Assembly: GCA_040285855.1 (NCBI GenBank)
Contig: JAUFOQ010000013.1
Coordinates: 1,364,001 to 1,428,000 of the forward strand
Direction of reading: 5' to 3'
Origin: Eukaryota sp. GEM-RC1
Lineage: Eukaryota
DNA: 64,000 bases
The notes under the pieces were generated by a model. That model made no database searches. It saw only the letters and a program-made list of their open reading frames with translations, and was not told the DNA's origin. Positions 11,237-61,895 of the stretch are shown one piece after another. The translations under genes were made by a program, and so were the position numbers. Numbering within the stretch: the first letter of the stretch is position 1; every line of letters starts with the position of its first letter.

Positions 11237-13680
11237 CTACAGCAAATGTATTTTTACAAAACCATCTCCATCATTACTTCCACTAGTATTTACTGGATTT
11301 AATCCTGAATTAAAAGATCCAGCTCCATACGAGGGATATGTATTGTTGTACTGACAACTAGGGACTACACTACCCCCGGTATACCCTCCGGCCCCTCCTC
11401 CTTCTTCACCAGTTCCACCACCACCACCAAATCCACCATGAGCTGTTTTAGAATAAGTAGTACATGTATCACTTTGACCACCCATTCCTCCATTAAGAAA
11501 GGACTTACCTCCAGTACTATTACGATCACCATTCTGACCATCAAGAGTGAAGCCACCACCGCCACCGCCTCTACGTCCTATACCAACACCTTCAGTGAAA
11601 TCTACTCTACCATCAGGTCCGTTTGTTGTCCAATTATTGTCATTCTGCCCATTACCACCTCCTGCAACTATTAAAGGAGAAGAATCCAAAACAACAAAGG
11701 AACCACCCCCACCTCCTCCAGCATAACTACTGGCGCCTAGAGCATCACACCCAACCTGACCAACCAATATTTTAATAATTTGACCAGATTTCAATTCAAA
11801 CTCACCAATCATCAGTGCTCCTTTTCCAGGTTTAGTTGAAGTCGTGTTGTTAACTTTACCACCTCTAGCTCCAGCACATTCAATTCTATACATTCCAGTT
11901 GAAGGTACAGTCCAATGTTGAATTCCATCAACAACATTAAAATTTTCAATATTTTTAAAATATTCATGGTTATAAGAACCAATACAGTCCTCAAGAGAAG
12001 GTCCAGTTCTACCTGTTTTTCCTGCATTAGTAAAGGTAAAGGGGAGTCGAGTAAATAACTGAAACGATAATTGAGAATTACTTTGGTTCAAAGTGACGAC
12101 GTTTTTTCTAAATTTTGAACAAGACCTTCAAACTTAACCTGTTGAAATTTCAAAACATATAAAGCATTTTCTGCAAAATACTTTTGGAAGAATTGACACA
12201 GTTTTGAATCATTTTTTAATTCCGCAAATATTTCAAAAATAGCAACAGGATCTGTCACCTTCAAATCAAAACCATTCACACATTCATGAAATACGTTAAC
12301 ATCCCAATCAAAATTTCTCCAAGAATCAACAAGACTTTTGGCCAAAAACGTTGAATAATCAGCTGTAACTGATGGAGAAAGAAGTTTGAAAGCTAACGGT
12401 GATGGAGAAAATCCTTGATAACTATGTAGAAACTCAAAAGGAACAACTTTCATAAAATTGACAACAAAATATTCAAGATCAGATTTAGCTCTATCAGCAG
12501 CTTGAAAAGTCCATAAAAACCAATGAGGAGGAATTTTATCCAATTGTTTAACATTTGCAAAATTGTTAACAGACCATTGTAATAAAACAGATTCAAAAGA
12601 TTTTTCATCAAATAAAGGTTGAATTAAAGTGTACAGATTGTTGTAATCAAATTGATGAATATCAATCAGAATCAAAATAGAATTTAATTGTTCACTTGTT
12701 AATTCTTGATTTTTAAAACTTTCTAAAAGACATTGAATAAGCCACCAATTATCAACAATAGGAAACAACCTTTGAAGTATTTCAACAGACAATGGTATTG
12801 AATCGAGTTTGAGGGGTTGGGAAAGAGTTTTAAAAATATTTAAAATTTCTTCAACAAAATGAATTTGATAACGAACATTTGCTAAATTCAAAAGTGACAA
12901 AATTTCCAGATCAGTAAAAGTATTTGATAATAAGAACGTCTTACAAGCTTCCAAAAGCTCTGGAACTTGAAAATAAAAGGACAATTGATAAAAACTTAAA
13001 ACATTAGAAATATCGAGCTGAATTGAATCTGAATAGAACAAATTGAGAAATTGATCAAATATTTCTTCTTCTACTCCTTCAAATTCTGATTCATAAGAGA
13101 TTTTTCGATCATTTGAATCAATAAAACTAGTAGAGAATTGGTTCAGAAAAGTTGCCGACGTGGCAACTAAAATTAAGGAATTTGTTTGAATGTGTACTTC
13201 CTTGTAGGTAATTGACACGTCACTAGGAGCAAACTTTCTAAAATTAGAAACAATCACGTCATGATTTAATTGGAAAGTAAACGTTTCCTTCAGGTTCAAT
13301 TCAGAAGCAATAAGAACAGCAAGATAATCAGAAAGGTTAGTGTATTTCAAGAAAGTAGCTAGACCGCCAATATCATAGAGATCTTGAAAAGTGAACTTCA
13401 GAGGGAGACCATAGATAGAGTCCAAGATTTTGAATAAGAGAGAGGAATCGGGAAGTAGAGGGAAAATGGGATCGAGATCATTTACCTTGGAAGAAGAAAA
13501 CAGTTTGGTTTTAAGAAGTTCACTGAAGAGAGAAACAACGGCAGAATGACAAGGAAACTCGTCATCGTGAAGGGAAATGGATGAGTCAATGAGAACACCT
13601 TCTTTACGAAGATTACAAAGCTTTGCAGTGATTGTAGAAGGAGAAAAGGCGAAGGATTGGGTAGGAGATTCAGTTCCCAT
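11237..13680 (-). CDS. Tandem BTB/POZ protein with C-terminal ALK/LTK-type glycine-rich domain
   Basis: Two BTB-like segments (FPCHSAVVSLFS; NSLILVATSATF...YFQVPELLEAC). C-terminal FTFTNAG.TGRTGP, GIQHWTVPSTGMYRIECAGARGG, GGGGGSFV. The ORFs join by a 1-nt shift in the T-run near 12103. Confidence 0.8.
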
Positions 13681-15124
13681 GTAACAACAACCAGACCTAC
13701 AGTACAATAGAAGGAATTTTTAGTAAATTACTGCATAATATACAGTACTGTACTTGTAAAATACAAGAGTTTTCATTTGAAAAATACAAAAATACATAGA
13801 ATACACAAAATACGCTAAAATCGAAAGTATAATACAAACAAATCAGTCTGATGATCTTTTTAAACTAGCACTCAATGATAACGGTGCAGTAAAGATTGTA
13901 GTCGTTTCCACTTCCTGCAGGTGGTTACAACGATGGCGAACAAAAGTTCAAGGTTGATCTCCACTAACTCACTGATTCCAGCATCTGCATCATGCACCAT
14001 GTCCTCTTTCTTATGTTCCAAAAGTTACTTCTTGGATTGGTAGGATGAATTGAGGAACAGACTACATCATATAGAGGTTGATGAGCAAAATTTGGTCATT
14101 TTCACAGATTGAGTTTGATAAATGCAAGTAAATCGGAACCATATGGTATGGAATATCTGCAACAAAGGGTGACTGCATCTGGCAGAAGCACTTGATATCA
14201 TTGTAATGCACAAAAACGAGCTACAGAAGCACTTTCCAAGCATATTGGAAAAATACAGTAAAGTACAGTCTGTATTTAAAATCGGTAAAGTTTTTCAAGA
14301 GAAGAAAGAAATATATAAACTATCAAAATTTTTACCTCGTTTTCCAAAAATTTGATAGAATCAAAAAAATAGTTGCTAAACTGTATAACTTCATTACCAT
14401 ATGTATTTACAGCATTTTCTTTTCCGATCAAGAAACACTGATTCAATTTGATTTCCAAACCAATAGATACGCAAAGCTTAACAAAATTGTCAAGACTCGA
14501 TTAAAAACACACATACTAGTAGGTCCAAATCATATCTTTTCATTTTGAGTTTTTTAAGATATGCTTCGGTGTAAATTTAAAGAGTTCTAAATGAGTTTTG
14601 GTAATCTACTGATACATACTTCTTGTTTTCGTTCTCCAATTTGTCAATCATAGGACTAAACGTACGATACACTCTAAAAACAGAACACATATACGAACAG
14701 AGAATACAAAACATTGCTGTACATATGGACTTCTCAAACTCTCAATTAATCACGTATCAGCCAACTTGAATCAACCACGAATTTTGAGTGTAGTAATGAC
14801 ACTATAGACTATTCTCCAAGTGTTTAAGCAAGAAAACACTTTCGTCTTCTAATGATGAGGCTCATAAAGACAAAATTTCGATTAGAAATTCAAAAACAAA
14901 TTTAGAACTGAGTTGTATAATATGGTGATACTAATTTGGAACAACAAATAACTCTGATATAACAATTTATTCCACAGAACTTTACCGGAAAATAAATCTC
15001 GTACAATGAATGCTTTCAGAATTAAAAATTGAATAACTATCCGAATTTTTCCAAAAATAAATAAATCTACAACCAAGAGACGATCCTCAACAAAACATTT
15101 AAAAACTTAATTAATTAAAATTTC

Positions 15125-19243: not shown

Positions 19244-20982
19244 ATGCTTCACTTGGATTGTTCGATTTGTGATACAATCTTTAAAGATGCTTGTACGCTG
19301 CCCTGTGGTCATTGCTTCTGTCTCGCGTGTATATCAGAGTGGCTCAGCCAAAACAACAGTTGTCCCAATTGTCGCAGTGAGACCACTCTGAACGATGTTG
19401 TTCCCTGTTACTCTCTCCGTGAAGCTGTGGAATCTTTTGTAAACAATCCTGCCTCTGTGCCTGAAATTTCATCGAATGACATCAGCTTTGACTTCAATGA
19501 TGAGTTGGGAAATGGTTTAGCTGCAACTGTTTATCCCTGTGATTGGGCTGGCACCTCTGTTGCTCTTAAACTAGTTCGGAAAACCGATCAGAACGAAGCA
19601 AAACTCTTACAAGAAGTGTCTCATATGACTTCCCTGTCTCATCCTTTTGTCCTTCGAGTGTTTGGTATAACTAGACTTCCGAGGCACATTGGTATCTTGA
19701 TGGAACTCGGCTCTGGACATTTGCAAGTTCCAACATCTCTTTCCGCCACCACTCTATCACAAGCCATTGACATATGCACTGCTGTCCAGCATCTACATTC
19801 AAAGAGCTTAGTTCACCATGACATTAAACCTCAAAATGTCATTTTGGTGAATTCTCAGGTTAAACTAACCGATTTTGGTTCATCTCGATCCGTTGACAAC
19901 TACACTTCCACTTTACAAGTCACCCCCAAATACACACCCCCAGAAGCTTTTAATAAGATTTATGGACCTGCATTTGATGTATACAGTCTGGGAATATTGT
20001 TTTATGAAATGTTTGCCAATAGACTTGCCTTCGAACACATGGGTCTTCTTCAAGTAGTTATGACTAAACAGACTCAGCATTCATTCAGTTTCCCCAATTG
20101 TTTTCCTCGACCAATTTCCACTCTAATTGACAAATGTCTTTCAGTAAATCCTAGGGAAAGACCTTCTGTTAATGATGTACTCAAAGAGTTGAAAGAAGTC
20201 AATCGAGTTGATCCGTCTCAGCTAGTGCAACAGGAACGCGTTCAACCTACTCAAATGAGGCTCTATATCAAAACACTTAGCGGTAAAACCATTACACTGG
20301 AAGTACAACCAATTACAGAAATCGAATTAATCAAGTATATGATCCAAGAAAAGAAGGTATTCCTCCTGATCAACAACGACTTATATGTGCTGGAAAACAG
20401 TTGGAAAATCATTATACTCTTCAAGACTACGGTATTTTAGAAACGTCTACTTTTCATTTGATTCTTCGACTTCGAGCTGGAGAAGGGTTTACTGTAATTA
20501 CAGAGGATGGACGAGGACTTTCAATCGCGTCTGGTTCAATTGCTGGTGTCAAGGATCAAATACGTAAAGAGATAGGAATAGCCACTTCATTATTACGCAT
20601 CAAAGACCGTAACGGTGTTGTACTTCATGATGATATCATAGTTAAACCGAAATTGGGCAGGGTGAGAAAAGAGGCAGGCGTCTGTTTTGTTGATATTTGT
20701 GGTCAGGAGCCTGTAGGTGATGCACTATACTTGGAGGTTTTGGATACCCCTAACGACCAAAAACCAACTTCGATAATTATCAAAACTCTCACTGTTAAAA
20801 CCTTTCCACTGAAATTACATGGAAATGAAACAGTTGAAGAAATCAAGGTGATGATCCAACGAAAAGAAGGTGTTCCTCCTGATCAACAACGACTGTATTG
20901 GAATGGATGCCGGTTGGAAAGTGGACGTCCTCTCCACTACTATGGCATTCAAACAGGTTCGATACTTTATGTAATGTTTTGA
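19244..20982 (+). CDS. RING finger - protein kinase - ubiquitin-like repeat fusion
   Basis: C3HC4 RING, kinase ([20 protein letters not shown]), Ub-like domains [13 protein letters not shown]...GIPPDQQRL...LRLRAG and [13 protein letters not shown]. Frameshift near 20350. Confidence 0.88.
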
Positions 20983-33509: not shown

Positions 33510-36500
33510 TTATAAACCAGAAAGGTAAGCAGCATACGCCTGTTTCATTGTTGCAGTAATACTATCCAAGATCTTACTGTCATTCAAGTCTACTTTACTG
33601 ACCATATTGCCACGAGTCTTACCTTTGAGATACTCATACATTGGATCAAAGTGACTACCATTCTTGAGAGGACAAATAACAAGGCCAGTACCAAGTTCAG
33701 TAACTTTGGCAGCAATATCATCAAATCTAGATTCCCAAGTACGACCATTAGGGTCTTGTGGATGATTATCTTCACAACCACAGTTAAATCTCTTACCATG
33801 ATTAGGAGAATCGCCAATAACAAAGATAATTCGATGACCACCAGGCCATTTGGCTTTTAACATTTCATCTAATCCAGTACAGATATCTTCTGCAACGTCA
33901 TCACCTCCATCAGCAACAACTCCTCCAATGGCATTCGAGAGAGCTGTCGCATTACCAAAAGGAATAAGCTCAACGGGAACTGAATCTCCAATATCACGAT
34001 AGGCACAAACTAAGGTTAATTATAAAACAAAAAACATACATGAAAAAGAAACTGTTAATTTCTTGGTATCGTAACCCATTGCACTAACAGACCGGGAGAT
34101 ATACTCTTCTAAAACTTTTGCCATTTCTCTGATTTGATTTGAAGTTTGTTGAATATAAGTACTCATGGAACTAGTGGCATCGAAAACAAAAGCTGCAGAC
34201 AAAGATAGATCCGCACGTTGTTTGACATAATCAGCATCAGAAATTCTGGCGGAGAGCGAAAACGGAACCTTTGGTTTACTAAAAGTAGAAGACGAACTTG
34301 CCTTACTAGGAGTAGAAGAAACACTTGGTTTAAATCCATCTTCATAGTCCAAAGATACAGGGGGGAGCCACCACGGCGTCAGGACACTCGACCTTAGGAA
34401 CTCCAGAGGGATCATTGTCAGCAGGCCAATGGCCATACTTAGGGGAGATGCTTGGGAGAACCCATTCCTATGCAGTCGTGACGATTAACACACTTGTAAG
34501 GAATAAAAAGGGAATTTTCTCATGGTAGTAGTTGAAACGATGAACGGGATCGTCTAACTTGGTACAAGAGAGATCATGAGGACATGTTAGTAAGTTTAAA
34601 TGAACAAAGTGAGTTCGATGCACTGCAGCGGTGTCTTTGCAATGTTTGCCAAATCTACAGACATGGATAAACTGCCTCATATGAGCAACAGTTTTAGGAT
34701 TCGCAGACAAACTTCCGTCATAGTAGTGTTTACAAGTGAAAGGGTTTTGACAAACTTGTCGTCTGATTCCAAAGAATCCTTTTACTTTATCCAATGTACA
34801 CTTCTTCCCCTTAGGATGAATCACGTCACCAGACTTCTTATCAACAGGACAAGCCCAAACCTTTCTTGGAGTAATTCTTTCCTTAGAAGTGTTAAGCTCA
34901 ATGTGAGTGAAACTTGCATAGGAGGAACTACTACCACTTTCGAGTTGAACTTTGATTTGAGAAGTAGAGGTTCTGGAGTTTCGGAGGTTCTTGGAAATAA
35001 TAGAAATTTTATCAAATTGAAATTCTAACCCATGATCAATTCTTTCAATACAAATCTCACCAGTAGCCTTATTGATCTTAATTCCAAAACGAATATACTT
35101 ATCCGCCATTCTCTTTACAAAGTACATTCGAAGTGTTGCTAGAGTTGGAGTTCCAGGATTTGGATTCGCAGATTCATAAACAGAGACATAACCATTGTTG
35201 AAACCAAAAGTGATTGGGCATTCACCATTTACTAGACCAAAGATGAAGCTACCAGTAGAATTGACATCAAATTTAATACACAATTCACGTTCATAAGAGC
35301 ACGAGGACATTAAGTAAGCCCAACGATGATGTTCTTGAGGTGTTAAAAGTATGTTAAAGCCATATTCTAACTGCTCGTGGGCACAATAGCTAGCTTCAAT
35401 CATATTGTTTAGATAGTCACAAGAATCAACAGACTCTGTTAGAATTAAGAAGTTTTCTTTTCCTCTAGATAGTACTTCAAGGTCGTGTTGAGCTCGATTA
35501 CTTAGTGTAGTATAGACAGTTCTTGGCATGACAACGTGTTCGACATCACTAAAGGAAATCTTACTCGGAAGATGGCACTCGATAGTGAAGTGATTGTCTG
35601 GCATTAGAATTGATTGAACAAATATCTCCTCTGTAACTGAAGAGATATTAAACTTAGATAGATTCAATTTTGAATGTTCTTTCATGTGGTTGAGTGAGTG
35701 GCACATATCAAGAGCAACAGTTTCAGCTGCACCTTTTACACCAAAATTCTGAACTAAGCTGTAATAATTGTTCTTCTTTTCAGTTTCGTCAGCAGGAATT
35801 CTAATGTAAGGTCTGTGAGGAACTGCTCCATCATGAGTATAATACTTAGTAGCAGCAGTGACATGAAGAAAAGTAGAAGTATGCTTGGTAACAGAAGACT
35901 TAAAGATCACAGCAATCGGTCCATAGTGAGTGTTAGTATTAGGTCCTAGAATTGAAAAGACTGTACGATCTCCACGAAGATCTTTGTCAGCTTGAAAGCC
36001 GATACCTACCTTAGCTCCAGATTCATCAGGAGCACCAACTAAGTTATTCAAATCAAGAGCCGCTTGAGCAATGTTCTTAGCTAAACGACCGAGTTCAGAT
36101 CGTTCTTCCTTTGATAGATCGGTACATTCCATTAGAACACGCATACCATCTGGACAAGTCATTGACTTATTCAACAAACCATTCATTTCCATCTCAGTAG
36201 AGACAGCTAAGAAATCAGCAGCTTGTTCTTGGTTGGAGTAGTTTACTAATTGATAATGAGAGGCGGCAACGATCTGACGGACTTTAGCAGGGTCTGCAAG
36301 CTTGGTCTTCATCATATTAAGTGAGTAGAAAGCTCCATGAGTTAGACATGATTCAAAGGTTTCTGGTTTAATTCGATGAACTGGACGGAAACGCATTAAC
36401 AATTCTCCTAGAGCTTTTAGTTTTTTAGGTGTTGGAAATTTAGGAAGGAGTCCATGTAAACGACGCTGATTGCTGACGTAATCTAACTTATTTTCACAGG

Positions 36501-38509
36501 TAAACACTCCCAAATCAGGCATCAAATTTCCAAATATTTCAAATAACCTAATATTTCGATGAGAAAACATACGCACGTGATCCAAGTCTCCTCTGTTTTT
36601 ACAAGAAGCTCCACGACTACAAGGAGGACGGAAATCCAAAACACCTGAATGACTAAAGGTGTTCAAATGAATCTCGTCAACCGACTTACAACTGGTACCA
36701 TTAGGACATGGCTTCCGTTCTAAATGAACAAACTTCTCCATGTGACTTTTAGTTGTCATCTCCGTACATTGGAAGCCTCGAGGACAGACAATCTTGTCAG
36801 AACAAGAAGAATTGAAAGGATCATCAGCCAAATGGATTGGATGGGTGACGTCAGCTTGATGAAGGACAGTGAGATCAACACAGTTAGGATTAGGGCAACT
36901 CAAATGGTCATGATGTTTGAATTTAAGACAGTCTGCATCACTGCATTTAAGACCTTTTTCACAGATAGGACGATGCCAGAAGCTTTCTCGATGGTCAGGG
37001 GTTTGATCCTTGCAGAGACTTTCGTGATGACAGGCTGGTGCATGAGTAAAGCTCAAATCATGGCTGGAATCACGTTGATGTGATTGGCAAGTAGAGAAAT
37101 GATGGCACGTTTTAGACTTAATGACAGCAAATGGGTTTACAACAGTTCTACCAGGATTTGGAGCAACTGTTCTAGTTCTAAATTGAATAGCAGAATTAAC
37201 AGTCGTAGAAGAAGAAGAAGAATTAAAGTTAAAACTTGGTGATTCATTTGACGAACTGTGTAAGCGATTGTTTAAAAAGGAGATTTCATTCAGTAAACGG
37301 GTGATTGTTTGCTCCGTAGATTGTTTTTCTTTTTGGACAGTCTTTTCTAAATTTAAATATTTCTGTATCTTGTGTGATTGTTGGTGAATAATGTCATTCA
37401 AATATTCAATTTCATCGTTTAAAATCTTCTTTTGTGTTTCGAATTGATTACTCTGAGATTGTAATAGTAATATCTGGTCGCTTTGAGATTGGTTTTTTCT
37501 TTAAGAAACTCCAGTTCTTTTAGCAAAAAGAATGGTCAACTGGTTTTGGTTCAGCAAGATTTAAATTTTGCAAAATTTGAATTATTTCAATAATTCTAGG
37601 GCGAAGAGCTGAATCCACTGCTAAACATCTCTTAACTATATTAGCCAATTCAGTAGGTATAGACTTGTCAAAAGGTAAAGAAAGCCCCTTTTGTTTTGTC
37701 CCCATGACTCCAAAAATAGACATTCCTTCAAAAGCATGCCTATTATGGAACAATTCATATAAGACAATTCCAAGTGAGTATATATCGCTTTGGGGAGTGA
37801 CCTTGTTGTCGAATTGTTCAGGAGCAGCATATGCCAAAGTCATTGCATTAGATCTTGGAACAGTAGAAGTTAAAGCAATGTTGCGAGAAGTTCCGAAATC
37901 AGCAATTCTAATTCTATTATCAACAACCAACACATTTCCAGGTTTGAGGTCTCCATGTACAATAGATTTGCTATGGAGATAGCTTACACCTTGGCAGAGT
38001 TGTTTGGCGTACTCCACAGTGATAAAAGAGAAAGAGTTTGGACAAGGAAGAGATGAAGAAGCTCTTTCCATGACGATTCCAATCCGATCCTCCCAATAAG
38101 AAAGACCATAGACACGAAGGACAGCAGGGTGATTGAGTTGAAGAAGGAGGTTCATCTCCTTTTGTAGGTTGATTCTTCCCTCTTCAGTGAGGGATATAAG
38201 CTTGACCGCGACTGGTAGTTTGAACCATTCAGCAGCATACACAGCAGCAAAACCTCCTTCATCGATCTTTTCATGGAGTTCGACTTGGTCTGAAGGAATT
38301 TTGGGACAGAGATCGCCATCCTGAGCAGCTTGAAGAAGGTCTCGAAGTGCTAAATTGGGGCGTTTTTCTAAAGGAGAATGAGTACGGCAGAACGGACAGT
38401 TGTCTAAGGATAAAGCACACTGAGCACAACTAGTGTGAGCTTCTCTACAGAGAATCAGTGGAAGATGCCGTGAGAGGTTGAACGGCTGACAACAGAGAAT
38501 ACAATCCAT
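33510..38509 (-). CDS. RING-kinase-coiled coil-PBZ array-putative ADP-ribosyltransferase-PBZ array-VWA multidomain protein (copy 1, long)
   Basis: RING (CILC...C.EAH..C..C...CPFC), kinase (HGDLKPGN, DFG, YAAPE), about 11 Cx5C...H...[FY]xH fingers, VWA (FDATSSM, AYRD, GGDDVAED, IGDSPNHG). 30-nt intron at 34010-34039; several homopolymer frameshifts. Confidence 0.8.
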
Positions 38510-42673: not shown

Positions 42674-45600
42674 ATGGATTGTATTCTCTGTTGTCAACCT
42701 TTCAACCTCTCACGGCATCTTCCACTGATTCTCTGTAGAGAAGCTCACACTAGTTGTGCTCAGTGTGCTTTATCCTTAGACCACTGTCCGTTCTGCCGCA
42801 CTCATTCTCCTTTAGAAAAACGCCCGAATTTAGCACTTCGAGACCTTCTTCAAGCTGCTCATGATGGAGATCTCTGTCCTAAAATTCCTTCAGACCAAGT
42901 GGAACTCCATGAAAAGATCGATGAAGGAGGTTTTGCTGCTGTGTATGCTGCTGAATGGTTCAAACTACCAGTCGCGGTCAAGCTTATATCTTTAACTGAA
43001 AAGGAAGAATCAACCTACAAAAGGAGATGAACCTCCTTGTTCAACTAAATCACCCTGCTGTCCTTCGTGTCTATGGTCTTTCTTATTGGGAGGATCGGAT
43101 TGGAATCGTCATGGAAAGAGCTTCTTCATCTCTTCCTTGTCCAAACTCTTTCTCTTTTATCACTGTGGAGTATGCCAAACAACTGTGTCAAGGTGTAAGC
43201 TATCTCCATAGCAAATCTATTGTACATGGAGACCTCAAACCTGGAAATGTGTTGGTTGTTGATAACAGAATTAGAATAGCTGATTTCGGAACTTCTCGCA
43301 ACATTGCTTTAACTTCTACTGTTCCAAGATCTAATGCAATGACTTTGGCCTATGCTGCTCCTGAACAATTCGATAACAAGGTCACTCCCCAAAGCGACAT
43401 CTACTCACTTGGAATTGTATTGTATGAATTGTTCCATAATAGGCATGCTTTTGAAGGAATGTCTATTTTTGGAGTCATGGGGACAAAACAAAAGGGACTT
43501 TCTTTACATTTTGACAAGTCTATACCTACTGAATTGGCTAATGTAATTAAGAGATGTTTAACAGTGGATCCAGCTCTTCGCCCTAGAATTATTGAATTAA
43601 TTCAAAATTTGCAAAATTTAAATCTTGCTGAACCAAAACCAGTTGACCATTCTGTTTTGCTTAAGGAATTGGAGTCTCTTAAAGAGAAAAACCAATCTCA
43701 AAGTGATCAGATATTACTTTTACAATCTCAGAGTAATCAATTCGAAACACAAAATAAGATGTTAAATGAAGAAATTGAATATTTGAATGACATTATTCAC
43801 CAACAATCACACAAGTTACAGAAATATTTAAATTTAGAAAACACTGTCCAAAAAGAAAAACAATCTACGGAGCAAACAATCACCCGTTTACTGAATGAAA
43901 TCTCCTTTTTAAACAATCGCTTACACAGTTCGTCAAATGAATCGCCAAGTTTTACCTTTTCTTCTTCTTCTTCTTCTGCGACTGTTAATTCTGCTATTCA
44001 ATTTAGAACTAGAACAGTTGCTCCAAATCCTGGTAGAACTGTTGTAAACCCATTTGCTGTCATTAAGTCCAAAACGTGCCATCATTTCTCTACTTGCCAA
44101 TTACATCAACGTGATTCCAGTCATGATTTGAGCTTTACTCATGCACCAGCCTGTCATCACGGAAGTCTCTGCAAGGACCAAACTCCTGACCATCGAGAAA
44201 GCTTCTGGCATCGTCCTATCTGTGAAAAAGGACATAAATGCCGTGATGCAGACTGTCTTAAATTCAAACATCATGACCATTTGAGTTGCCCTAATCCTAA
44301 CTGTGTTGACCTCACTGCCCTTCATCAAGCTGACGTCACCCATCCAATCCATTTGGCTGATGATCCTTTCAATTCTTCTTGTTCTGAAAAGGTTGTCTGT
44401 CCTCGAGGCTTCCAATGTACGGAGATGACAACTAAAAGTCACATGAAGAAGTTTGTTCATTTAGAACGTAAGCCATGTGCTGTTGGTTCCATTTGTAAGT
44501 CAGTTGACGAGATTCATTTGAACACCTTTAGTCATCCAGGTGTTTTGGATTTCCGTCCTCCTTGTAGTCATGGAGCTTCTTGTAGAAACAGAGGAAACTT
44601 GGATCACGTGCGTATGTTTTCTCATCGAAATATCCGATTATTTGAAATATTTGGAAATTTGATGCCTGATTTGGGAGTGTTTACCTGTGAAAATAAGTTA
44701 GATTACGTCAGCAATCAGCGCCGTTTACATGGACTCCTTCCCAAATTTCCAACACCTAGAAATCTAAAAGCTCTTGGAGAATTGTTAATGCGTTTCCGTC
44801 CAGTTCATCGAATTAAACCAGAAACCTTTGAATCTTGTCTAACTCATGGAGCTTTCTACTCACTTAATATGATGAAGACTAAGCTTGCAGACCCTGCTAA
44901 AGTCCGTCAGATGGTCGCCGCCTCTCATTATCAATTAGTAAACTACTCCAACCAAGAACAAGCTGCTGATTTCTTAGCTGTATCTACTGAGATGGAAATG
45001 AATGATGAATGCAATGACACAATGTTTTCCCCAAATATAGATCGTATGCATGTTCTAATGGAATGTACTGATCTCTCAAAGGAAGAACGCTCTGAACTCG
45101 GTCGTTTGGCTAGGAACATTGCTCAAGCAGCTCTTGATTTGAACAAGTTAGTTGGTGCTCCTGATGAATCTGGAGCTAAGGTAGGTATCGGATTCCAAGC
45201 TGATAAAGATCTTCGTACTGATCGTACAGTCTTTTCAATTCTAGGACCTAATACTAATACTCACTATGGACCGATTGCAGTTATCTTCAAGTCTTCTGTT
45301 ACCAAGCATACTTCTACTTTTCTTCATGTAACAGCTGCTACTAAGTATTATACTCATGATGGAGCGGTTCCTCACAGACCTTACATTAGAATTCCTGCTG
45401 ACCAAACTGAAAAGAAGAACAATTATTACAAATTAGTTCAGAATTTTGGTGTAAAAGGTGCAGCTGAAACTGTTGCTCTTGATATGTGCCATTCACTCAA
45501 CCACATGAAAGAACATTCAAAGCTGAATCTATCTAAGTTTAACATCTCTTCAGTTACAGAGGAGACATTTGTTCAATCAATTCTAATGCCAGACAATCAC

Positions 45601-46344
45601 TTCACTATTGAGTGCCATCTACCGAGTAAGATTTCCTTTAGTGATGTCGAACACGTTGTCATGCCAAGAGCTGTGTATGCAACACTAAGTAATCGAGCTC
45701 AACACGACCTTGAAGTACTATCTAGGGGAAAAGAAAACTTCTTAATTCTAACAGATTCTGTTGATTCTTGTGACCATCTAAACAAAATGATTGAAGCTAG
45801 CTATTGTACACATGAGCAGTTAGAATATGGCTTTAACATACTTCTTACACCTCAAGATCACCATCGTTGGGCTTACTTAATGTCCTCGTGCTCTTATGAA
45901 CGTGAATTGTGTATTAAATTTGATGTCAATGCTACAGGTAGCTTCATCTTTGGTCTAGTTAACGCAGAATGTCCAATCACTTTTGGTTTCAACAATGGTT
46001 ATGTCTCGGTTTACGAATCTGCTAATCCAAATCCTGGAACTCCAACTCTAGCAACACTTCGAATGTACTTTGTAAAGAGAATGGCCGATAAGTATATTCG
46101 TTTTGGAATTAAGATCAATAAGGCCACTGGTGAGATTTGTATTGAAAGAATTGATCATGGGTTAGAATTCAAATTTGACAAAATTTCTATTATTTCCAAG
46201 AAACTCCGCAACTCTAGAACCTCTACTTCCCAAATCAAAGTTCAACTCGAAAGTGGTAGTAGTTCCTCCCATGCAAGTTTCACTCACATTGAGCTTAACA
46301 CTTCTAAGGAAAGAATCACTCCAAGGAAGATCTGGACTTCTTGA
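42674..46344 (+). CDS. Inverted copy 2 of the RING-kinase-PBZ-ART gene, lacking C-terminal PBZ array and VWA
   Basis: Highly similar to the reverse complement of about 34857-38509; frameshift near 43000; stop after ITPRKIWTS. Confidence 0.85.
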
Positions 46345-49932: not shown

Positions 49933-51063
49933 CTACTCATTGATTTCAGCAGAAAGATACTTCTCTACTGGAACCCAAGGGATATCAAAAGCATCAGCAA
50001 CAGCTCTATAAACAACATCACCTTTAATCACATTCAAACCAGGAACGAATTCAGGATTTTCAAGTGCAGCCTGTCTCCAGCCCTTATCAGCAAGCTGAAT
50101 AACATAAGGAAGAGTAGCATTGGTCAAAGCTAGAGTTGAAGTGAAAGGTACACATCCAGGCATGTTGGCAACACAATAATGGAGAATATCATCAATGACA
50201 TAGACAGGATCAGCATGAGTGGTTGGTTTACATGTCTCAATACATCCACCTTGGTCAACAGCCACATCAACAACAACGGTTCCCTTTTGCATCAATTTAA
50301 GCATATCTCTGGTAATGAGATGAGGAGCTTTGGCACCAGGAATAAGGACAGCTCCAATAACAAGGTCAGCGTCTTTAATGACTTTTCTAATGTTATAATC
50401 ATTAGACATCATAGTTTTAACATTCTTAGGCATAACTTCAGCCAAGTATCTAAGCCTGGGAAGTGAGACATCCATAATGATGACGTCAGCACCAAGACCA
50501 GCAGCCATTAAAGCAGCGTTGTAACCAACACTTCCTCCACCAATAACGACAACACGCGCAGGCAAAACACCAGGGGTTCCAGCAAGTAAAATTCCCTTTC
50601 CACCTAGAGGCTTTTCCAAATAGTTGGCACCCTTTTGAGAAGCAAGGCGACCAGCAATTTCTGACATTGGAGCCAAAAGAGGGAGAGATTTATCGGTCTT
50701 TTCAACAGTCTCGTAGGCAACACAGATAGACTTAGATTTGATCATGGCCTCTGTTAATGGTAGATGAGAAGCGAAGTGGAAGAATGTGAAGAGGAGCTGA
50801 TCCTCCTTAATGAGCTCATATTCGGGCTCAATAGGCTCCTTGACCTTGACAATCATATCAACAGCGGCATATGTGTCCTCAATGGTAGGGAGAATATGAG
50901 CACCGGCTTCTTCATAGTCAGAATCAGGAAACCCGGAGTTTTCTCCAGCAGTATGTTGGACATAGACTGTATGGCCTCGTTTAGTAAGTTCGCGAACTCC
51001 AGCAGGAGTCAACCCAACTCTGTTCTCGTTGTTTTTGATTTCTTTAGGAACACCAATGATCAT
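49933..51063 (-). CDS. ald: Alanine dehydrogenase (bacterial type)
   Basis: MIIGVPKEIKNNENRVGLTP, VKVKEP, PMSEIAGR, GGGSVG, DVAVDQGGC, HYCVANMPG; intronless. Confidence 0.95.
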   Translation of the reverse strand: MIIGVPKEIKNNENRVGLTPAGVRELTKRGHTVYVQHTAGENSGFPDSDYEEAGAHILPTIEDTYAAVDMIVKVKEPIEPEYELIKEDQLLFTFFHFASHLPLTEAMIKSKSICVAYETVEKTDKSLPLLAPMSEIAGRLASQKGANYLEKPLGGKGILLAGTPGVLPARVVVIGGGSVGYNAALMAAGLGADVIIMDVSLPRLRYLAEVMPKNVKTMMSNDYNIRKVIKDADLVIGAVLIPGAKAPHLITRDMLKLMQKGTVVVDVAVDQGGCIETCKPTTHADPVYVIDDILHYCVANMPGCVPFTSTLALTNATLPYVIQLADKGWRQAALENPEFVPGLNVIKGDVVYRAVADAFDIPWVPVEKYLSAEINE

Positions 51064-51569
51064 TTGCGGTTGATGCGCTTGTGTAGAGACAAGGAAGACT
51101 GCTTTTAGGAGATTTCTTCCTATTTGAGGCCATGGGTCAAAATAAGGAGTCATATATCAAGTTGACGTTGTTAGACATACGTTAGCAGCATCACGTTCCA
51201 CATCCTGCCGTACAACAGTTATGTACAGTCTCTTGTGAGTATGTCAGTGATAAGGCCGTGATCCAGAATTCCTTATCTACCTGCAACAATCCAGTGAAAT
51301 GAGTTCGTTTATTACGGTCCTTACCCGGGTGCTAATCTTAACACATTCATCTGGATGGGTTGTAGCCTCATTGTTACTACATGAGGTAATGGTTTTCATG
51401 TACACCCGCAATTAATGTGACAATGAAAGGCCAAATATCATTTTGATTGCAATGTTTAACAAAGATCGTAACAACTATAATGGAATTATTTCAGTAGTGC
51501 AATATTGATTATCAATATTTGCAGAAAACCAGTCCAGTCAAACACTTAGAATTGAGCACAATATACACT

Positions 51570-54565: not shown

Positions 54566-56520
54566 ATGTCACTAATTCTCAATCACCTCCTCAGTCTCCC
54601 AAACCTCTTCAAAGAGTGTATCTTATCTACAATTCTTGTGTCTGCATTAATCGTTCTTTCCTTGTCATCCTTGAAGGCCATCAGCACCAGTAAGTCATCC
54701 ATATCTCTAGCCGGATCGGCATTGGTTTGATCTCTTCTGGATTCGTTTATTCTAGTTCCTCGCGGTTGCTTTCAATTCTTCTCATGTATCTAGCTCACTT
54801 CTTCTGGTGATCAAAATCGTTACCGTGCTCTCCATTGTCATCACAAGGCGTTTCCCTTTCCAAACGCTCCCTCAGATGGTCAGTGTTTATAATGGTCTAG
54901 GTGGACTCGCGTCTCCTTTGATCGCTTTTGCCTGGTTTTTTGCTTATGAAGTTCCAACATCTCTTATGCTGATCATCGTCCTTTCTGCAATCTTTGGAAC
55001 ACTTACTTGGTCAGGTAGTATTGTTGCTGCTTTGAAACTCCAAGGATGCATAAGAACCACATTATCATCGTCTCGATCAAGAACTCTGTCTCTTATTCTC
55101 TCCTCTGCTTTAACGATCTTTGTTGTTGTTCTATGTATTGCCAATACTGAAACTCGTGCTTTCTTCTGTCTTCTGTCAATTACCACAATCACATTCGTCA
55201 TTGGTGTAATAATGGTTTGTTATCAAATGGACCCTTCTTACTTTAGAGTCTTGCTGTTGGTGGTGCTGATTCCCCTGTTCTAATTAGTGTTCTCAACTCC
55301 CTCAGTGGATGGAGCGGTGCCTTCTGTGGTATGCTTACTGGAAGCAGTGTCTTAGTAATTGTTGGTATTCTCGTTGGATCCTCAGGAATCATTTTGAGTC
55401 AAGCCATGGCTGTTGCTATGAATCGTCCCCTGACTGCTGTTATTTTCGGTGGAAGATGAAAGTTGCCGCTAAACACGACTATGATGCTTCCCAAGTACAA
55501 ATCGCTTCTCCCAAGGATTTGGTTGATGCTTGCCTTGACGCCAAGAAAGTGTTGTTTGTTCCTGGATTTGGACTTGCTCAAAGTAGAGGAGGGCCAATTG
55601 TCGCTGAAATCATGAAAGATCTACAAAGCCGTGGTATTGTTGTTCACTTCTGCGTTGCTGGTCGTATGCCTGGTCATATGGCAGTCATTCTTGCTGAAAA
55701 CAGCATCCCTTATGAACTCATCTTTGATTTGGATGAGCTCAAGGGTCAATTTGAAACCTATGACGTTGCTATTGCCATTGGTTGCGCTGATACAATCAAT
55801 CCCATTGCTCAAGAATCCAAAGACTCCAACATCGCTGGAATGCCTATTTGTCCCGTCCATCATTGCAAGAAAGCTTATGTTCTCAAGCGTTCAAAGAGAC
55901 TCGACTCTGGATATTCAGGTGAACCACTTACTCTCTTGGTCAAGGAGAACTGTAGAACTGTATTAGGAGATGCACGTGAATCTCTTGGTGCTATTCAATC
56001 CAAACTCAATGACGTTCCCAAGTCTAATGTCTCTGCAAACACAGAAATGACTGTTTCAATTACTGTTGAAGCAAAAGCTTGTGATACACCTATTCAAGTT
56101 TCCGAGAAGTCCTTATCTCCTGTTAATGATATCGAATTTGTTGAAAAGAAGGAAGGAAAACAGGAATTGTTGGAGATGTTTCAAAATAATGATAGATTTC
56201 ATTTTGTTGTGGTAGCGTTGTTTTCAGTTTTGGTTGCAATACCAAAGAGTCTAATGATATTAGAAATGCTTTTAGTTCTTGTCCTCGCTTCCATTGTTGG
56301 ATTCTTCATCATTTGGTCCGTGCCTGCCAACCTTCATTCTCCTCTTATGTCTTTGAGTAATGGAATTTCTGGAATTGTCATTTTGGGAGCCATGAGTTTG
56401 GTTGGAAGTGACGTTGTAGTTGCTAATGTTTTGGCTATCATTGCCGCCTCCGCTGCTACTATCAACATCAGTGGTGGACTTACAGTAACTTATATGATGT
56501 TCCAAAAGATTACTGGTTCT
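54566..56520 (+). CDS. NAD(P) transhydrogenase, beta(dII)-dIII-alpha2 fusion lacking dI; reads through in frame to 57387
   Basis: GGADSPVLISVLNSLSGW, GSSGIILS, VAGRMPGH, LHSPLMSLSNGISG, NISGG. Introns at 54725-54755 and 55215-55246; frameshift near 55453. Confidence 0.88.
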
Positions 56521-57411
56521 ATGGGTCTAACCACTTGGGGAGTACGTAAATATGGTCGGTCACTATTTAAGCCTAAACAACAAACAGTATTTTCTGAGGA
56601 TCTGTATATAGACGTATTCAAAAAATGCATTAACAAATTCAACCAAAGAAATTCAGATTTTAATCATCCTCCGAAAACTAATAGTCAAAAGCCTTTTCAT
56701 ATTGAAGGACCAAAGGATCCCAAAACACAGGAAACTTTTAAACGAATGGGAAGTGATCCAAAATTAAAGAATGCATTAAAAGCTTGTTTAGGATTTGTCC
56801 GAACAATTAATCCCAATACGACAGTGGTTAGTCTTAGTGCTGCAGTTGCATCATTATATTCTAAAGGAAGTAATCGTCATGTGAGAGTGGCAGTAACAAG
56901 TGCCGTAACTGCAATTGGAACCACTATTCTCCAAAATAGTGGGTTATCATTAACTTCTATACGTAGGAATCCTAGTCGTGAGTCAGTAAGACTTAGAGCT
57001 AGTGACTTATCTGAAGAGGAAACTATGGGTGTATTATTACGAATGATTGGAGATACCGTTCAGCTGATTAATATTAATTATGCCACCGAGGCATTGGTTG
57101 ATGGAACTATAGACGGGAATCCTGATTATCTAATACCTAATCTAATAAGTGCGTTCGAAGTAACGAATTCTGAGAATCCCATTACCAATGTTCGTGATTC
57201 AGTAATTAATGGTGCTGTCAATGCTATAATAGATCATTCCGAATATCATATTAGAGCTTATCTTACTAGTGGTCGTGGTGCATTGTTAGATATATCAAAT
57301 ACTGCAATAATCCACCATGATCCAAAGTTTGCTAAAAACGACAACGTTAATGAATACGGAGAATATATTGATGTTGAACCTATCTAATTATTTTAAAAAA
57401 ACGATTCATTT

Positions 57412-58072
57412 TTATTGAGTTTTTACTCTACTCCATCCACATTTAGGATTAATACAGGTTTCTATAATGGTCTCAGCTTCATCACCAGCTCGAGTAGTTC
57501 TATATTTCGTCAATAATGATTCTTGTTTACATCTTGGGCATTTAACATATACCATATCTTCTCCTGTAATAAATTGAGATTCCTTAAATCTTGCATATAA
57601 TTCATTTAAATGAATTAACATGTTTGAATAATGCGAATCAATTTCTTCAATGAAATTAGATTCGAATTCAGTGGTTTTGATACCATTTAATTCATTGTAA
57701 AATTTTTCATATCCCTTCATTTCGATTTCCATTATGTGCATTTTCTCATTATATTTTTCAATGGTCTTAAACAATCCTTGTAATAATTTGAAATACAAAA
57801 TTTGATTCTTTGGTTCACAAAAATAGACAACGTGATTATTTTTTTAGCTTCTTTTACATTGATTACATTTTTTACATATGTTTGATCAACATCCCTCATT
57901 TCTTTTCAATTGTATATTCTGCCAATGATACATGTTCTTCATATGTTTCATTAAAAGATGATGTTAATTCATATTCATCTCGTAATGTAATTTTTCCCAA
58001 AAACTTTAGTCGATTTTCATAATCTTTAATTTTCTTTATCAATGAATCATGATCTTTTCTAATTTCAATCAT
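57412..58072 (-). CDS. TFIIS/RPO30-like transcription elongation factor (virus-like)
   Basis: C-terminal ribbon CPRCK...TTRAGDEAETIIETCINPKC (cf. QTRSADE). Extends upstream through A-run frameshifts to the ATG at 58072. Confidence 0.75.
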
Positions 58073-58076
58073 TTTT

Positions 58077-59006
58077 GGACTTTAATAATCGTATTAGCTT
58101 GGCTAAAACTAATAGTCCCGAGTTCGCTGCTTTTTTAATCGATCTTTGTAATAGTGGACCTTCTGGATTTATTTCTCAAATTCCAAAGGTGTATGGATTA
58201 CATCTATCTGATGAAGCTTGGATGATCAATATGCGTCTTCGTTTGGCTATTTGGCCTGCAAATTTATTAAACTATTCAACGTGCTCTTGTGGAGCTAATG
58301 GTGTTTTTCGTCATTTAATTAATTGTCGTTATTTTATTCATCTCCGTGCAGTAATTCATGATGGTGTACGTGATTCTTGTTATTCCATGTTTAAAGCACA
58401 TGGTTTTCACTCTAAAGTTGAACCAGTTTTGAATCATCTTTCAGAAAATGAATTTACTGATCAAAAACGAGGGGATCTACATACTCCGTGGCTTAAATCG
58501 AGTCAAGCATTAATGGATTTTACTACAGTAGATGTATGTAACAAATCTTGTGTTAGTAGGATATTAGATTCTTCTTTTAATCCATTAACAGCAGCTGAAA
58601 AGCTCAAACACACCAAGTATGACTCTCAAGTAGAAGAATTAAATAGAAACTCATATTCCAAATTTGTGTTTCAACCTTTTGCTGTTTCTCTTTTGGATCT
58701 ATTAGTCCTGCTGGTGATCAATTTTTCAAGGATTTCGAAGAATTGTGTAAAGAAAAGAAGCGTAAGTTTAGAATGGCTGAATGGAAAAACCGTATAGTGT
58801 TTTCCATATATCGGAATATGCCTTTCTATTTCTCTAGATTAATTGAGAAATTGTACAAGTTTGGTGTGAAGGTTCATGTAGATAAACGTAATCTTTTACC
58901 GGGTGGTGATGAAGTCGTTTGGATTTAATCTTAGTATTATTTGTTTGTTTTTACAATTTCATAGTTTGTAGAAAGGTTACCTTATTGGGTGCCGAATAAA
59001 CATCTC
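58077..59006 (+). mobile_element. 5'-truncated CRE-like non-LTR retrotransposon (family A; CCHC plus restriction-like endonuclease)
   Basis: CSCG...HLINC, IHD, KVEP, RGD, D, K..KY, FQPFAVS motifs. 3' end ggttaccttattgggtgccgaataaa. Apparent TSD TCATTTTT at 58069-58076 and 59007-59014. Confidence 0.85.
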
Positions 59007-59063
59007 TCATTTTTTTAAATAAATAAAATCATTTTTTTATATAAAAGATTTTTTATTGATAAA

Positions 59064-59405
59064 ATGTCAAAAAAACAACAATTGGCATTATATGGAAAGT
59101 TTTATACTGATGTTAATAACATTGTCAATTCAGACTTAGATTATTCAAGTAAAGTGATTAGAATCAAGAATGAATGTATTATTGGAGTGAATTATTCACT
59201 AACTTGTATTGATAAACCATCTGTAGATTTAAAAGTAATGACTTATGAATTATTTTACAAATATATATCAAATATAATTGATGCTAGTATTGATGATGAA
59301 AGTAAAATTAATGAATGTTTAAAAGTTATATGTGGTATTCCATTTACAATCGAATTACTAGATCAAGTGGCAATTAGAAGAAAAAGAACAAAGGAAATGA
59401 ATTAA
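59064..59405 (+). CDS. Hypothetical protein within the virus-like block
   Basis: 113-aa ORF with AAAATG start and AT-rich codons. Confidence 0.5.
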   Translation: MSKKQQLALYGKFYTDVNNIVNSDLDYSSKVIRIKNECIIGVNYSLTCIDKPSVDLKVMTYELFYKYISNIIDASIDDESKINECLKVICGIPFTIELLDQVAIRRKRTKEMN

Positions 59406-60650
59406 ATATTTAATTCTTGTAGTTCAAGGTGAATATCAAAAGTTCAAATAAATCATTTCTTTTTGTTTGTTTAATTGTTCGAAGTAATTTATCTTAATCT
59501 ATATCATCCATTGTCCATAAATCAACTTCTTCTAAATCATATATATCCTTATATACTGGTGCAACATAATCAGGAACTTCGGGTATTATTATTATTTTTA
59601 CTTTTATTTTTAATTTTGATACAATTTTATAAAAATGTTCTTAATCTATACCAACTTTTTCAAGTTCTTTTTAAAATCATCCCATATACGTTCCTTATAA
59701 TATAGATCATATTTATACAAAAATATAGCAATAACTGTCAACGCATAAGATTTTGCATATTCTGGTTTTGGATTTAATTGATTATAAATTTCATATAGTT
59801 CAGGATAAAATCCCATCAATTCAAAACCATATTCTCTACTAATATTTGATGCATAGGATAGGATAATACAAGATGTTTATTCGGCACCCAATAAGGTAAC
59901 CTTCCTACAAACTATGAAATTATAAAAACAAACAAATAATACTAAGATTAAATCCAAACGACTTCATCACCACCCGGTAAAAGATTACGTTTATCAACAT
60001 TAACCTAAATAGCTTAGGATTGTTTGATTCATTTCAATATTTGGATTAGGAATATCAATATCCAATGCTCGTTGTTGAATAATTTCATTACACCATTCAC
60101 AACATAAATCACCACCAACATCATATGTTGGGAAATCTTCAACCAAATTATGTTTACAATAAACTACAGTATATAATTTTTTAGATAAAATAAATTATCT
60201 TTTAATTTTATTTTTGGAAACTTTGCTAATGCTTTTTCTTCATCAACTTTTACGTAATCAACAAATTCACCTACCATTTTAAAATCATAGTCACTGTCAA
60301 TTTCTGGATAGTCAATCTTAACAGTACCAATTTCAAATTTTATTTGTTTTTGATCAGGATGTTTTGGATTTATTATCATTGGATTAATTTCTTTTTCTTT
60401 ATCAATGCAATTAACCAAAATTCTAAAATTAATTAGATACTTTAACAAAACATCAACATCATAATATAGCATTTGAAATTTAAATAAATCTTGATGAGAT
60501 TTTAATACATAATAACCAACTATTTTTACAAATTTACATTCGTGGACTATATAAGCATCAGGATTTTCTTGATTTAAATCACTTTCATTAATATATCGAT
60601 TGACATATATATAGCAAACATTAATATTAACAGTACATTTATAAATTCAT
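59400..60650 (-). pseudogene. Decayed ORF with CxH...CxxC motif, interrupted by a retroelement fragment
   Basis: ORF 60164-60472 continues by frameshift into VYCKH...CCEWCNEII; further broken frames extend to about 59400. Confidence 0.4.
59871..60006 (-). mobile_element. Short 3' end of CRE-like family A
   Basis: Reverse complement of about 58870-59005. Confidence 0.88.
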
Positions 60651-60969
60651 TAACATCATACTGTATGAAAGTGAAATTTATACGTCACACATTATTGAAT
60701 CCGATCATGGAAGGTTAGATCTGGAATTAAATCTATAAAATGGAAGAAAAATTGTCAATTCAAGGAAATATGGAATCAAAGACCTTAACATATAATGGAG
60801 GGAGGAAACCCTCTTATTTACTATATTAATGTTTAGATTGCTTATGGCGCATTGCGCCACCAGTACGAGTTCTTCGGAACCCCCTCGGTTATTTGGGAAC
60901 ATTATTTAAATAACGGAATGTCATTTTTGGCGGGGTTATTTAAATGTTATATAGTTTCTTTAATTAGAT

Positions 60970-61290
60970 TCTATTTATTATGCAGACAATCATCCTTCGG
61001 ACTGAGTCGTACATAATTGTATTTTTATATAAATAATTTTCTCTAAGATTTTGATTATAAATGTAATAGATCAAACAACTAGTATTTGATGTCATTAAAA
61101 CAACACCCGTCGCTATCAAACCTCACAACAGCTTTGTCCTCATAAAACGAACTCACTGCTTATAAAGCTTTGGAGATGATTAGGGGAACTGTTTTAAAAA
61201 CTGTAAAAACGATCTGATTCAACCATAACATATGATCAAAACGTTTGTTCATCCTATTTTTTACGATTTTTCCGAAATCGTTTAAAAAAT
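60970..61290 (-). mobile_element. CRE-like family B 3' fragment with putative 3' UTR
   Basis: Minus strand NDFGKIVKNRMNKRFDHMLWLNQIVF...DSDGCCFNDIK, then an AT-rich tail ending ...gtctgcataataaa. Confidence 0.65.
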
Positions 61291-61379
61291 TTAATGCACT
61301 TTTCCTAAACGTCCGTAGATTGAAACGGCAAAGGGCATAATTCGAAAAAATAAATAATTGTTATTTTTTTTAAAAAAAA

Positions 61380-61736
61380 ATGGATATATATTTTGATGAT
61401 TACTTACTAGTAGCAGAATATGGATAAGTATTACATGAGAATTACGTAATAGATGCGTCATTGAGATCACTTACAGCACAAATTTATACAAATGATGATT
61501 CACTAACATCTTGTTTTCCTGAAAGTACTGTACATAAATTAAAATCCCATCAGTGGGGCGATTATTACACAAATGATGTTAAGCATAATTCCAAAACCAT
61601 GTCATTAACTACATGTGATCCAATTGTTCGTATAAAACGACATTTAAATATTGAAAATATTGAAAAATATCCAAAACCATCCAAACAATTAGTAAAACCC
61701 TTAGATAAATATGCAATCATAAAAGAAAAGATATAA
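61380..61736 (+). pseudogene. Hypothetical ORF with one internal stop, in the virus-like block
   Basis: T-run/A-run-ATG start at 61380; in-frame TAA at codon 16. Confidence 0.4.
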
Positions 61737-61895
61737 ACAAAATGTATTTAATACAAGGCAACAATACCACAATTAATACATCTATTTATACAAATGAATC
61801 GTTATATAAAGATTATTTAAATCACATCAACACACAAAAAGTTTACACTGTTTAACAATCACGTCATCAAAACAACAATTCTTTATTGAGGAAAT

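Follow-up and report, generated by a model that had tools for sequence, protein, structure and literature searches.

The ADP-ribosyltransferase (ART) chemistry of OspC, CopC and SopF has been described in injected bacterial effectors, and that of DarT in toxin-antitoxin pairs. OspC depends on calmodulin for its activity and SopF on ARF. CopC uses H137, F183 and E325 together with a second aromatic residue, F207, and OspC3 requires E326 and H328 (PMC9239266). Two aspartates serve the two steps of riboxanation in OspC3, with D231 acting as the first-step base and D177 acting on the ribose 2'-OH (PMC11598138). SopF is described as an ART with an I-Y-E triad (PMC10333799), and DUF3626 is the SopF domain (PMC6682159). 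The zinc fingers of the PBZ type, which read poly(ADP-ribose) (PAR), follow a published consensus and bind two consecutive ADP-riboses (PMC4756826), with Tyr and Arg making the PAR contacts in APLF (PMC6264785). PARG cleaves the chains and not the protein-proximal ester, and a bacterial-type PARG with PBZ repeats is reported from Adineta vaga in passages that mention no transferase (PMC4245714). Here we describe a gene on the minus strand (38509-33510) of a 64,000-nucleotide stretch of contig JAUFOQ010000013.1 (assembly GCA_040285855.1, positions 1,364,001 to 1,428,000), hereafter the window, from Eukaryota sp. GEM-RC1, which NCBI taxonomy lists as an unclassified eukaryote. This organism, which we take to be a free-living anaerobic metamonad, appears to encode there a single protein in which a RING finger, a kinase, PBZ-type fingers and a VWA domain accompany a central domain whose predicted structure is almost certainly an ART fold.

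The evidence for this fold comes from a template-free AlphaFold2 model built on a 58-sequence family alignment, which reached a pLDDT of 87.6 and a pTM of 0.87; prediction from the single sequence gave a pLDDT of 32.6 and was unusable. When the model was compared with 48,161 chains by VIA-align, the highest scores were those of OspC3 (Z 13.2, root-mean-square deviation (rmsd) 3.9 Å, 225 residues aligned), CopC (Z 12.7, 4.5 Å, 238 residues), SopF (Z 12.4, 5.1 Å, 228 residues) and a second OspC3 chain (Z 12.2), these four being tied within about one Z unit. Four DarT chains followed at 9.6-10.4, then Tpt1 at 7.8 and unrelated helical bundles at 5.6 or less, so that all eight chains with Z ≥ 8 are OspC3, CopC, SopF or DarT. 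Foldseek returned only two matches at E ≤ 0.001, both to SopF (top E 1e-4, probability 1.0), with OspC3 and CopC next. The model is also matched by predicted structures of viral proteins, a DUF3626 protein of a phage among them. No PARP is present among the best 50 VIA-align rows listed, which does not exclude PARP, and there is no PARP (PF00644) Pfam match. ESM Atlas features gave leads only, with recognition below the threshold of the tool (DUF3626 0.91, DUF3841 0.89, OspC 0.89 and a rotifer zf-CCHH cluster 0.83). Together, the model and its matches give the domain, with near certainty, the split beta-sheet fold of the H-Y/F-E class of ARTs, an ART fold being what the initial annotation had supposed. 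Its more specific comparison with DarT and DUF3626 holds at the level of the fold, with DarT standing behind OspC3/CopC and SopF. The DUF3626 lead is correct at that level, since SopF, whose domain is DUF3626, belongs to the ARTs; the sequence itself is not DUF3626.

By sequence, the central domain defines a family of its own. Four domains of the family were tested and none has a Pfam match at E ≤ 10, DarT (DUF4433) included, and searches of PDB sequences with the domain or its profiles gave nothing relevant. A hidden Markov model (HMM) search of 1.84 billion representatives yielded 222 matches at E ≤ 0.001, including 101 at E ≤ 1e-10. The organism is known for 12 of the 20 members checked, and all are eukaryotes; organisms with members are three 'Eukaryota sp.' isolates, Kipferlia bialata, Diphylleia rotans, Rotaria, Adineta vaga and Didymodactylos. 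Records of the present organism hold at least 10 copies of the ART domain. Word-based protein searches recovered only four paralogs, and scanning metagenome and viral contigs for the pattern gave no relative. The one genome pattern match (L001) lies antisense to an unrelated open reading frame (ORF) and was rejected as chance, and two plasmid matches by tblastn were likewise judged to be chance. In the full-text literature searched, which excludes most subscription papers and the supplements where domain surveys could list it, there is no description of the domain or the architecture. The central domain appears to represent a widespread and so far undescribed eukaryotic family.

In a FastTree phylogeny of 104 domains, the window domain falls in a 14-member clade that includes Kipferlia (support 0.995), where it is surrounded by PARG-bearing proteins from its own isolate and from related ones. 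Five members that lack fingers form a separate clade (support 1.0). Three finger-less members (P0262, P0233 and P0276) are in polyvalent-type proteins, and P0262 carries an InPase domain and, by eye, an apparent second small ART domain. When P0262 was compared with phage sequences by tblastn, the best 20 of 471 matches were all to the InPase region. The family is best seen as a new branch, in eukaryotes, of predicted ARTs of the OspC/SopF/DarT type, and the window gene as a lineage-specific RING-kinase variant.

By motif order, the window domain has apparent counterparts of the active-site residues of OspC, D231 excepted. An OspC sequence with matching numbering shows H143, D177-x10-F188, F211-G, D231 and E326-x-H328-I-P, and the window domain shows H61, D191-x9-F201, Y212-G and E327-x-H329-L-P (numbered from position 36558, with the domain taken as 386 residues). 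In the model, H61, F201 and E327 lie on the strands 59-63, 200-204 and 327-330, respectively. Members were drawn from the best 150 of the 222 HMM matches, and envelopes outside 200-520 residues were dropped to leave an alignment of 136 rows (the query and 135 relatives). Counted among rows with a residue, conservation is 103/104 for H61, 104/114 for S79, 132/135 for D191, 134/136 for F201, 136/136 for G205, 129/133 for Y212, 122/124 for H323, 118/123 for E327, 116/124 for H329 and 118/124 for P331. The pattern D-x-F..[FY]G..ExH[ILM]P, which was written post hoc from both families and is descriptive rather than proof of equivalence, occurs in 4/4 OspC ORFs, 93/136 family rows, 0/77 DUF3626 proteins and no shuffled sequence. 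At the place of OspC3 D231, as judged by motif spacing, Ala is found in 123 of 131 rows and no acid is evident. From fold and conservation, E327 is the predicted catalytic residue, as the initial annotation had suggested for the glutamate of its IECH motif, and the domain is probably an active NAD+ enzyme. Without an evident counterpart of D231, riboxanation is unlikely, and plain ADP-ribose transfer is the default expectation.

Each of the known enzymes nevertheless differs from the window domain. OspC3 and CopC (7wr5, 7xn4; PF06128) are its best structural matches and share the order H..D-x9/10-F..[FY]G..ExH[IL]P, but identity is only 10-14%, the profile match is not significant, and the window domain is eukaryotic, embedded among zinc fingers and free of ankyrin repeats, for which the gene has no Pfam match. 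SopF and DUF3626 (7dn8, 7dn9; PF12294) provide the top Foldseek match and have YG and then IExH in the same order, whereas the window domain lacks RPKYGAL and E-x-[QH]-I-H-G, carries ExHLP and a large helical insertion, and is not a stand-alone bacterial protein. Membership in DUF3626 was rejected, given no Pfam match at E ≤ 10 and scores below 0 bits on 7/7 paralogs when a 77-sequence profile was used with hmmsearch; the motif E-x-[QH]-[IVL]-H is found in 75/77 DUF3626 proteins and is replaced by ExHLP in the central-domain family. The DUF3626 and OspC profiles also fail to detect each other (hhalign 0.24%), and one DUF3626 protein matches SopF (E 8e-4). DarT and DarT1 (7omv, 8baq, 7yk3, 7omu) resemble many family members in having an ADP-ribose-removing partner, but the shared core is smaller (160-177 residues aligned) and there is no sequence match. 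DUF3626 itself was also encountered elsewhere: three divergent DUF3626/SopF-like genes (L004, L006 and L008), two of them adjacent, are present in one bacterial genome (G668), and DUF3626 proteins of several Trichoderma fungi (P0071, P0078, P0081 and P0110) are another case of the SopF-type fold in eukaryotes.

The other parts of the gene were recovered on the minus strand in the order proposed by the initial annotation: RING, kinase, about seven fingers, central domain, about four fingers and VWA. The kinase motifs AVK, HGDLKPGN, DFG, APE and DIYSLG are all intact, as had been claimed, and the Gly-rich loop is degenerate. For the RING finger, the C3HC4-type Cys/His spacing that begins at the ATG agrees with the original assignment, but Pfam RING models stay below their cut-off (E 0.24-0.63). 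A probable coiled coil follows the kinase, as suggested by its composition. The DATSSM sequence of the metal ion-dependent adhesion site (MIDAS) motif is at 34181-34164, and VWA_4 matches intact paralogs at E 2e-6 and 7e-6 and is weak in the split pieces of the window. A conserved domain of ~170 residues between the ART domain and the last fingers, overlooked in the first reading, is homologous across the family (hhalign 96.6%); PF12248 is matched by this domain in 7/58 family members and is not matched by the window's own segment.

No single ORF spans the gene in this assembly. The locus reads as a 365-residue RING-kinase ORF, then a 1010-residue ORF, two short intervening frames and finally VWA in two pieces, and the frame is broken by five one-base shifts (37525-29, 37493-98, 34505-09, 34442-45 and 34360-65), all in homopolymer runs. 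An inverted paralog (copy 2) is placed divergently in the window, with three unrelated genes between the two copies. It forms a single 1114-residue ORF from the kinase through its end, with one homopolymer shift near 43005, and stops before the last four fingers and VWA. Its frame is open from the kinase to the end of the ~170-residue domain, and the kinase-coil junction of the window gene has exactly two one-base gaps relative to it. The paralogs P0005 and P0008, which are 87-89% identical to the gene, run uninterrupted from fingers through the central domain and last fingers to VWA, and have the predicted residues at each of the three later shifts and at the splice junction of the intron. 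Because copy 2 and P0005/P0008 between them read across all the breaks, one protein of ~1656 residues is the simplest reading, and we regard the single polypeptide from RING to VWA originally proposed as very likely. NCBI model P0001 was rejected since it skips ~43 residues to cross the first two shifts and leaves out the VWA domain.

Comparison of the two copies gives dN/dS ratios of 0.08 for RING, 0.18 for the kinase, 0.09 and 0.14 for the central domain and 0.11 for the ~170-residue domain, with 0.19 overall and no in-frame stops in any block compared. The domains are under purifying selection. Similar shifts at homopolymer runs were seen in CPSF30-like (5445), ubiquitin (20350), PI3-kinase (28500), acyl-CoA synthetase (48465), SAC3 (7540) and BTB (12100) genes of the window, in a survey of 10 junctions judged by eye, two of them on the wrong strand, that gives no rate. 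The assembly likely carries homopolymer errors, and the five shifts are likely among them.

Proteins of the family commonly include other ADP-ribose modules. A Pfam scan covered 72 of 148 new family matches (37 top-scoring and 35 picked mostly for length, a sample biased toward complete proteins) and found microbial-type PARG in 34, a PBZ match in 14, kinase in 4 and VWA in 3, along with single fusions to RING, arginine-ART, PARP, WWE, Roco/LRR, GBP, EF-hand and InPase. An upstream finger is present in 62 of the 71 members with more than 150 residues upstream, and 30 proteins carry an intact PARG signature, GGG-x6-8-QEE. These sequence features suggest that a writer, putative readers and an eraser often share one chain. 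An A. vaga protein of 2297 residues (P0156) has PARG, PBZ and the ART domain, and may be of the same kind as the PARG-PBZ protein reported from that species (PMC4245714), from which the window gene differs in carrying a RING-kinase and no PARG. From the first finger onward, the window gene resembles PARG-bearing paralogs. Because P0143 combines kinase, PARG and the ART domain and P0003 begins with a kinase tail, the gene may have arisen either by the swap-in of a RING-kinase cassette or by PARG loss from a kinase-PARG form. Another RING-kinase cassette in the window (19244-20982, plus strand) continues over a homopolymer shift into ubiquitin-like repeats to which it is fused, and the cassette appears to be reused with other C-terminal cargo.

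Seven fingers precede the central domain, of which six fit a relaxed pattern and one is degenerate, and four follow it, one with a long loop and one across a frameshift. The 1010-residue ORF contains seven matches to Cx5Cx6-8Hx3[FY]xH, compared to a mean of 0.0005 (maximum 1) in 2000 shuffles, and the best PDB sequence match of fingers 5-7 is the tandem PBZ of APLF (E 0.039). The window gene shares the tandem C-x5-C-x6/8-H-x3-[FY]-x-H spacing with the PBZ fingers of APLF and CHFR (PF10283), in eleven copies. PAR binding is plausible from context and avidity, and the chance that the fingers bind ADP-ribose is perhaps a little short of even.

The combined explanation that we consider best, and to which we give even chances, is a finger-docked ART writer with a RING-kinase relay in one chain. 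The fingers would hold the protein at ADP-ribose marks, with the arrays binding ADP-ribose chains by avidity. H61, F201 and Y212 would then bind NAD+, and E327 would catalyse the passage of ADP-ribose to nearby acceptors. RING and kinase might relay the signal as ubiquitination and phosphorylation, and the VWA and ~170-residue domains might recruit partners. PARG-bearing paralogs would reset the mark, leaving the PARG-less window copy as a relay or 'on-only' version. That the family has expanded and recombined with Roco, GBP and kinase modules may point to immunity or stress signalling; a stress or immune setting is the likeliest, yet it is the weakest step of the mechanism. The self-amplification put forward in the initial annotation would be a further, hypothetical property.

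Several observations weigh against this explanation. The Foldseek TM-scores are low (0.35), with an rmsd of 13 Å over the full model compared to 3.2-5.1 Å by VIA-align. Neither DUF3626 (1.6-2.2%) nor OspC (2.6-4.2%) is matched significantly by hhalign, and the residue equivalences rest on motif order rather than on residue-level superposition. No window finger meets the strict PBZ consensus, and canonical PBZ status was rejected. The PBZ scan proposed with the initial annotation placed 0/10 fingers above the Pfam cut-off (best E 0.26), and among the core fingers the residue at C+2 is aromatic in 1/7 and Y-R follows the second Cys in 0/7. Across the family, Tyr or Phe is at C+2 in 98/367 fingers. 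The original PBZ assignment thus stands for the spacing and fold and for the resemblance to APLF, but not for the strict consensus or for the APLF-type Tyr and Arg contacts, which are mostly replaced. The coil and fingers are also the least constrained part of the gene (dN/dS 0.51). Finally, kinase and VWA were never seen joined in one unbroken paralog record, and their link comes from overlapping paralogs.

Other chemistries for the same domain must be considered. One is that the ART domain itself makes ribose-linked chains, as a PARP-independent writer of oligo- or poly(ADP-ribose), a product that its own PBZ fingers would read and the fused PARG would cut. The usual partners, PBZ and PARG, are both chain-specific (PMC4756826; PMC4245714), the PARG signature is intact as noted above, and the invariant D191 is at the place of OspC3 D177. 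However, ordinary PARPs could be the source of the chains on which the readers and eraser act, the fingers of the window are degenerate, and the closest relatives of solved structure add one ADP-ribose only, as does DarT. We therefore consider a chain-making domain unlikely, and equally so the broader proposal of a widespread eukaryotic PARP-free PAR system, with a writer from the OspC/SopF/DarT branch, readers and eraser in one polypeptide, in which RING-kinase, Roco, GBP or WWE modules would be exchanged as the input and output parts of a switch for immunity or stress in protists and rotifers. Somewhat more doubtful is a single-chain counterpart of DarTG, in which the domain would ADP-ribosylate its own or foreign DNA or RNA, the macrodomain PARG would be the antitoxin and the fingers would bind nucleic acid. 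One of the four DarT chains matched is a DarTG entry, some finger-less members are in polyvalent-type proteins, one of which has an InPase domain similar to phage proteins, and the degeneracy of the PAR-contact residues would be in keeping with a different ligand. On the other side, the Z-scores of OspC3, CopC and SopF are 2-3 units above those of DarT, and these enzymes have ExH and YG/FG motifs in common with the domain, and the window copy, being without PARG, would need its antitoxin in trans.

An arginine ADP-riboxanase of the OspC kind, or a related two-step chemistry in eukaryotes, would agree with the top Z-scores of OspC3 and CopC and with the post hoc pattern, which fits OspC and the family and not DUF3626. 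The Ala at the D231 place and a PARG partner that would be ill-suited to riboxanated arginine make this very improbable. Hardly more probable is that the copy is a recent pseudogene, that it represents two or three adjacent genes, or that the ART-fold domain is a non-catalytic module for binding NAD+ or ADP-ribose. The five frameshifts, the end of P0001 before VWA and the end of copy 2 before the last fingers speak for such readings, but the shifts are confined to homopolymers as in nearby housekeeping genes, the compared blocks are open and constrained, and the Glu at the catalytic position is kept across nearly all rows. A finger-docked writer with a RING-kinase relay remains our preferred explanation, and the features of the locus on which it is built are collected in Table 1.

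Table 1. Features of the RING-kinase gene with the predicted ART domain and of its inverted paralog (positions in the window)
Feature	Positions	Strand	Basis
Start ATG (38509) and C3HC4-type RING finger	38387..38509	-	Cys/His spacing; sub-threshold Pfam RING matches
Ser/Thr-type protein kinase, catalytic motifs intact	37577..38281	-	Pfam PF00069 (Pkinase) E 7.4e-41
Two one-base gaps in homopolymer runs	37493..37529	-	Comparison with copy 2, open there
Probable coiled coil and Ser-rich linker	37110..37495	-	Composition; weak matches to coiled-coil families
Seven PBZ-type C2H2 fingers, one degenerate	36559..37107	-	Pattern scan; PDB sequence match to APLF PBZ (fingers 5-7)
Predicted ART-fold domain, OspC/SopF/DarT type, with ~100-residue helical insertion	35401..36480	-	AlphaFold2, Foldseek, VIA-align, conservation
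ART-domain residues	H61 (36378), D191 (35988), F201 (35958), Y212 (35925), E327 (35580), H329 (35574)		
Conserved ~170-residue domain, likely beta-rich	34855..35370	-	Homologous across family
Four further PBZ-type fingers; last spans shifts 34505-09 and 34442-45	34429..34752	-	Pattern scan; contiguous in P0004, P0005, P0008
30-nucleotide GT-AG intron within VWA domain	34010..34039	-	GTATGT..AG ends; spliced reading agrees with paralog P0008
VWA domain, DxTxS MIDAS motif, acidic motifs downstream; stop 33510-33512	33510..34200	-	VWA_4 in intact paralogs; motifs
Inverted paralog (copy 2): RING-kinase-coil-7 fingers-ART-conserved domain	42674..46344	+	93.7% nucleotide identity over 3.9 kb

Elsewhere in the window, an intron-free alanine dehydrogenase gene (49933-51156, minus strand; Pfam E 2e-83 and 3e-48) is bacterial-looking and might reflect lateral transfer. 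At 54756-57387 (plus strand), an NAD(P) transhydrogenase beta subunit is fused to the alpha 4TM region and then to ~290 unrelated residues in frame, and the end of this fusion is a possible insertion or misassembly boundary. The region 57400-62000 is AT-rich (GC content 0.28) and is possibly a mobile or viral insertion; among its ORFs are presumably a TFIIS-like zinc-ribbon protein and a retroelement-like one with no Pfam match, alongside others without assignment. A reading at 11237-13719 (minus strand) has one or more BTB domains and then, across a shift, an ALK/LTK glycine-rich domain. Dispersed repeats of 130-260 base pairs with 75-97% identity, several of them inverted, are present at 8618/26208, 9086/23820, 22785/61060/10967, 23171/58647 and 58870/59871.

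If the predicted chemistry holds, the family would add an unannotated class of writer to eukaryotic ADP-ribosylation, often fused to readers and an eraser. It would also explain why bacterial-type PARGs of rotifers and protists are located within PBZ proteins of 1300-2800 residues. A. vaga is a cultured animal that has a member of this family.

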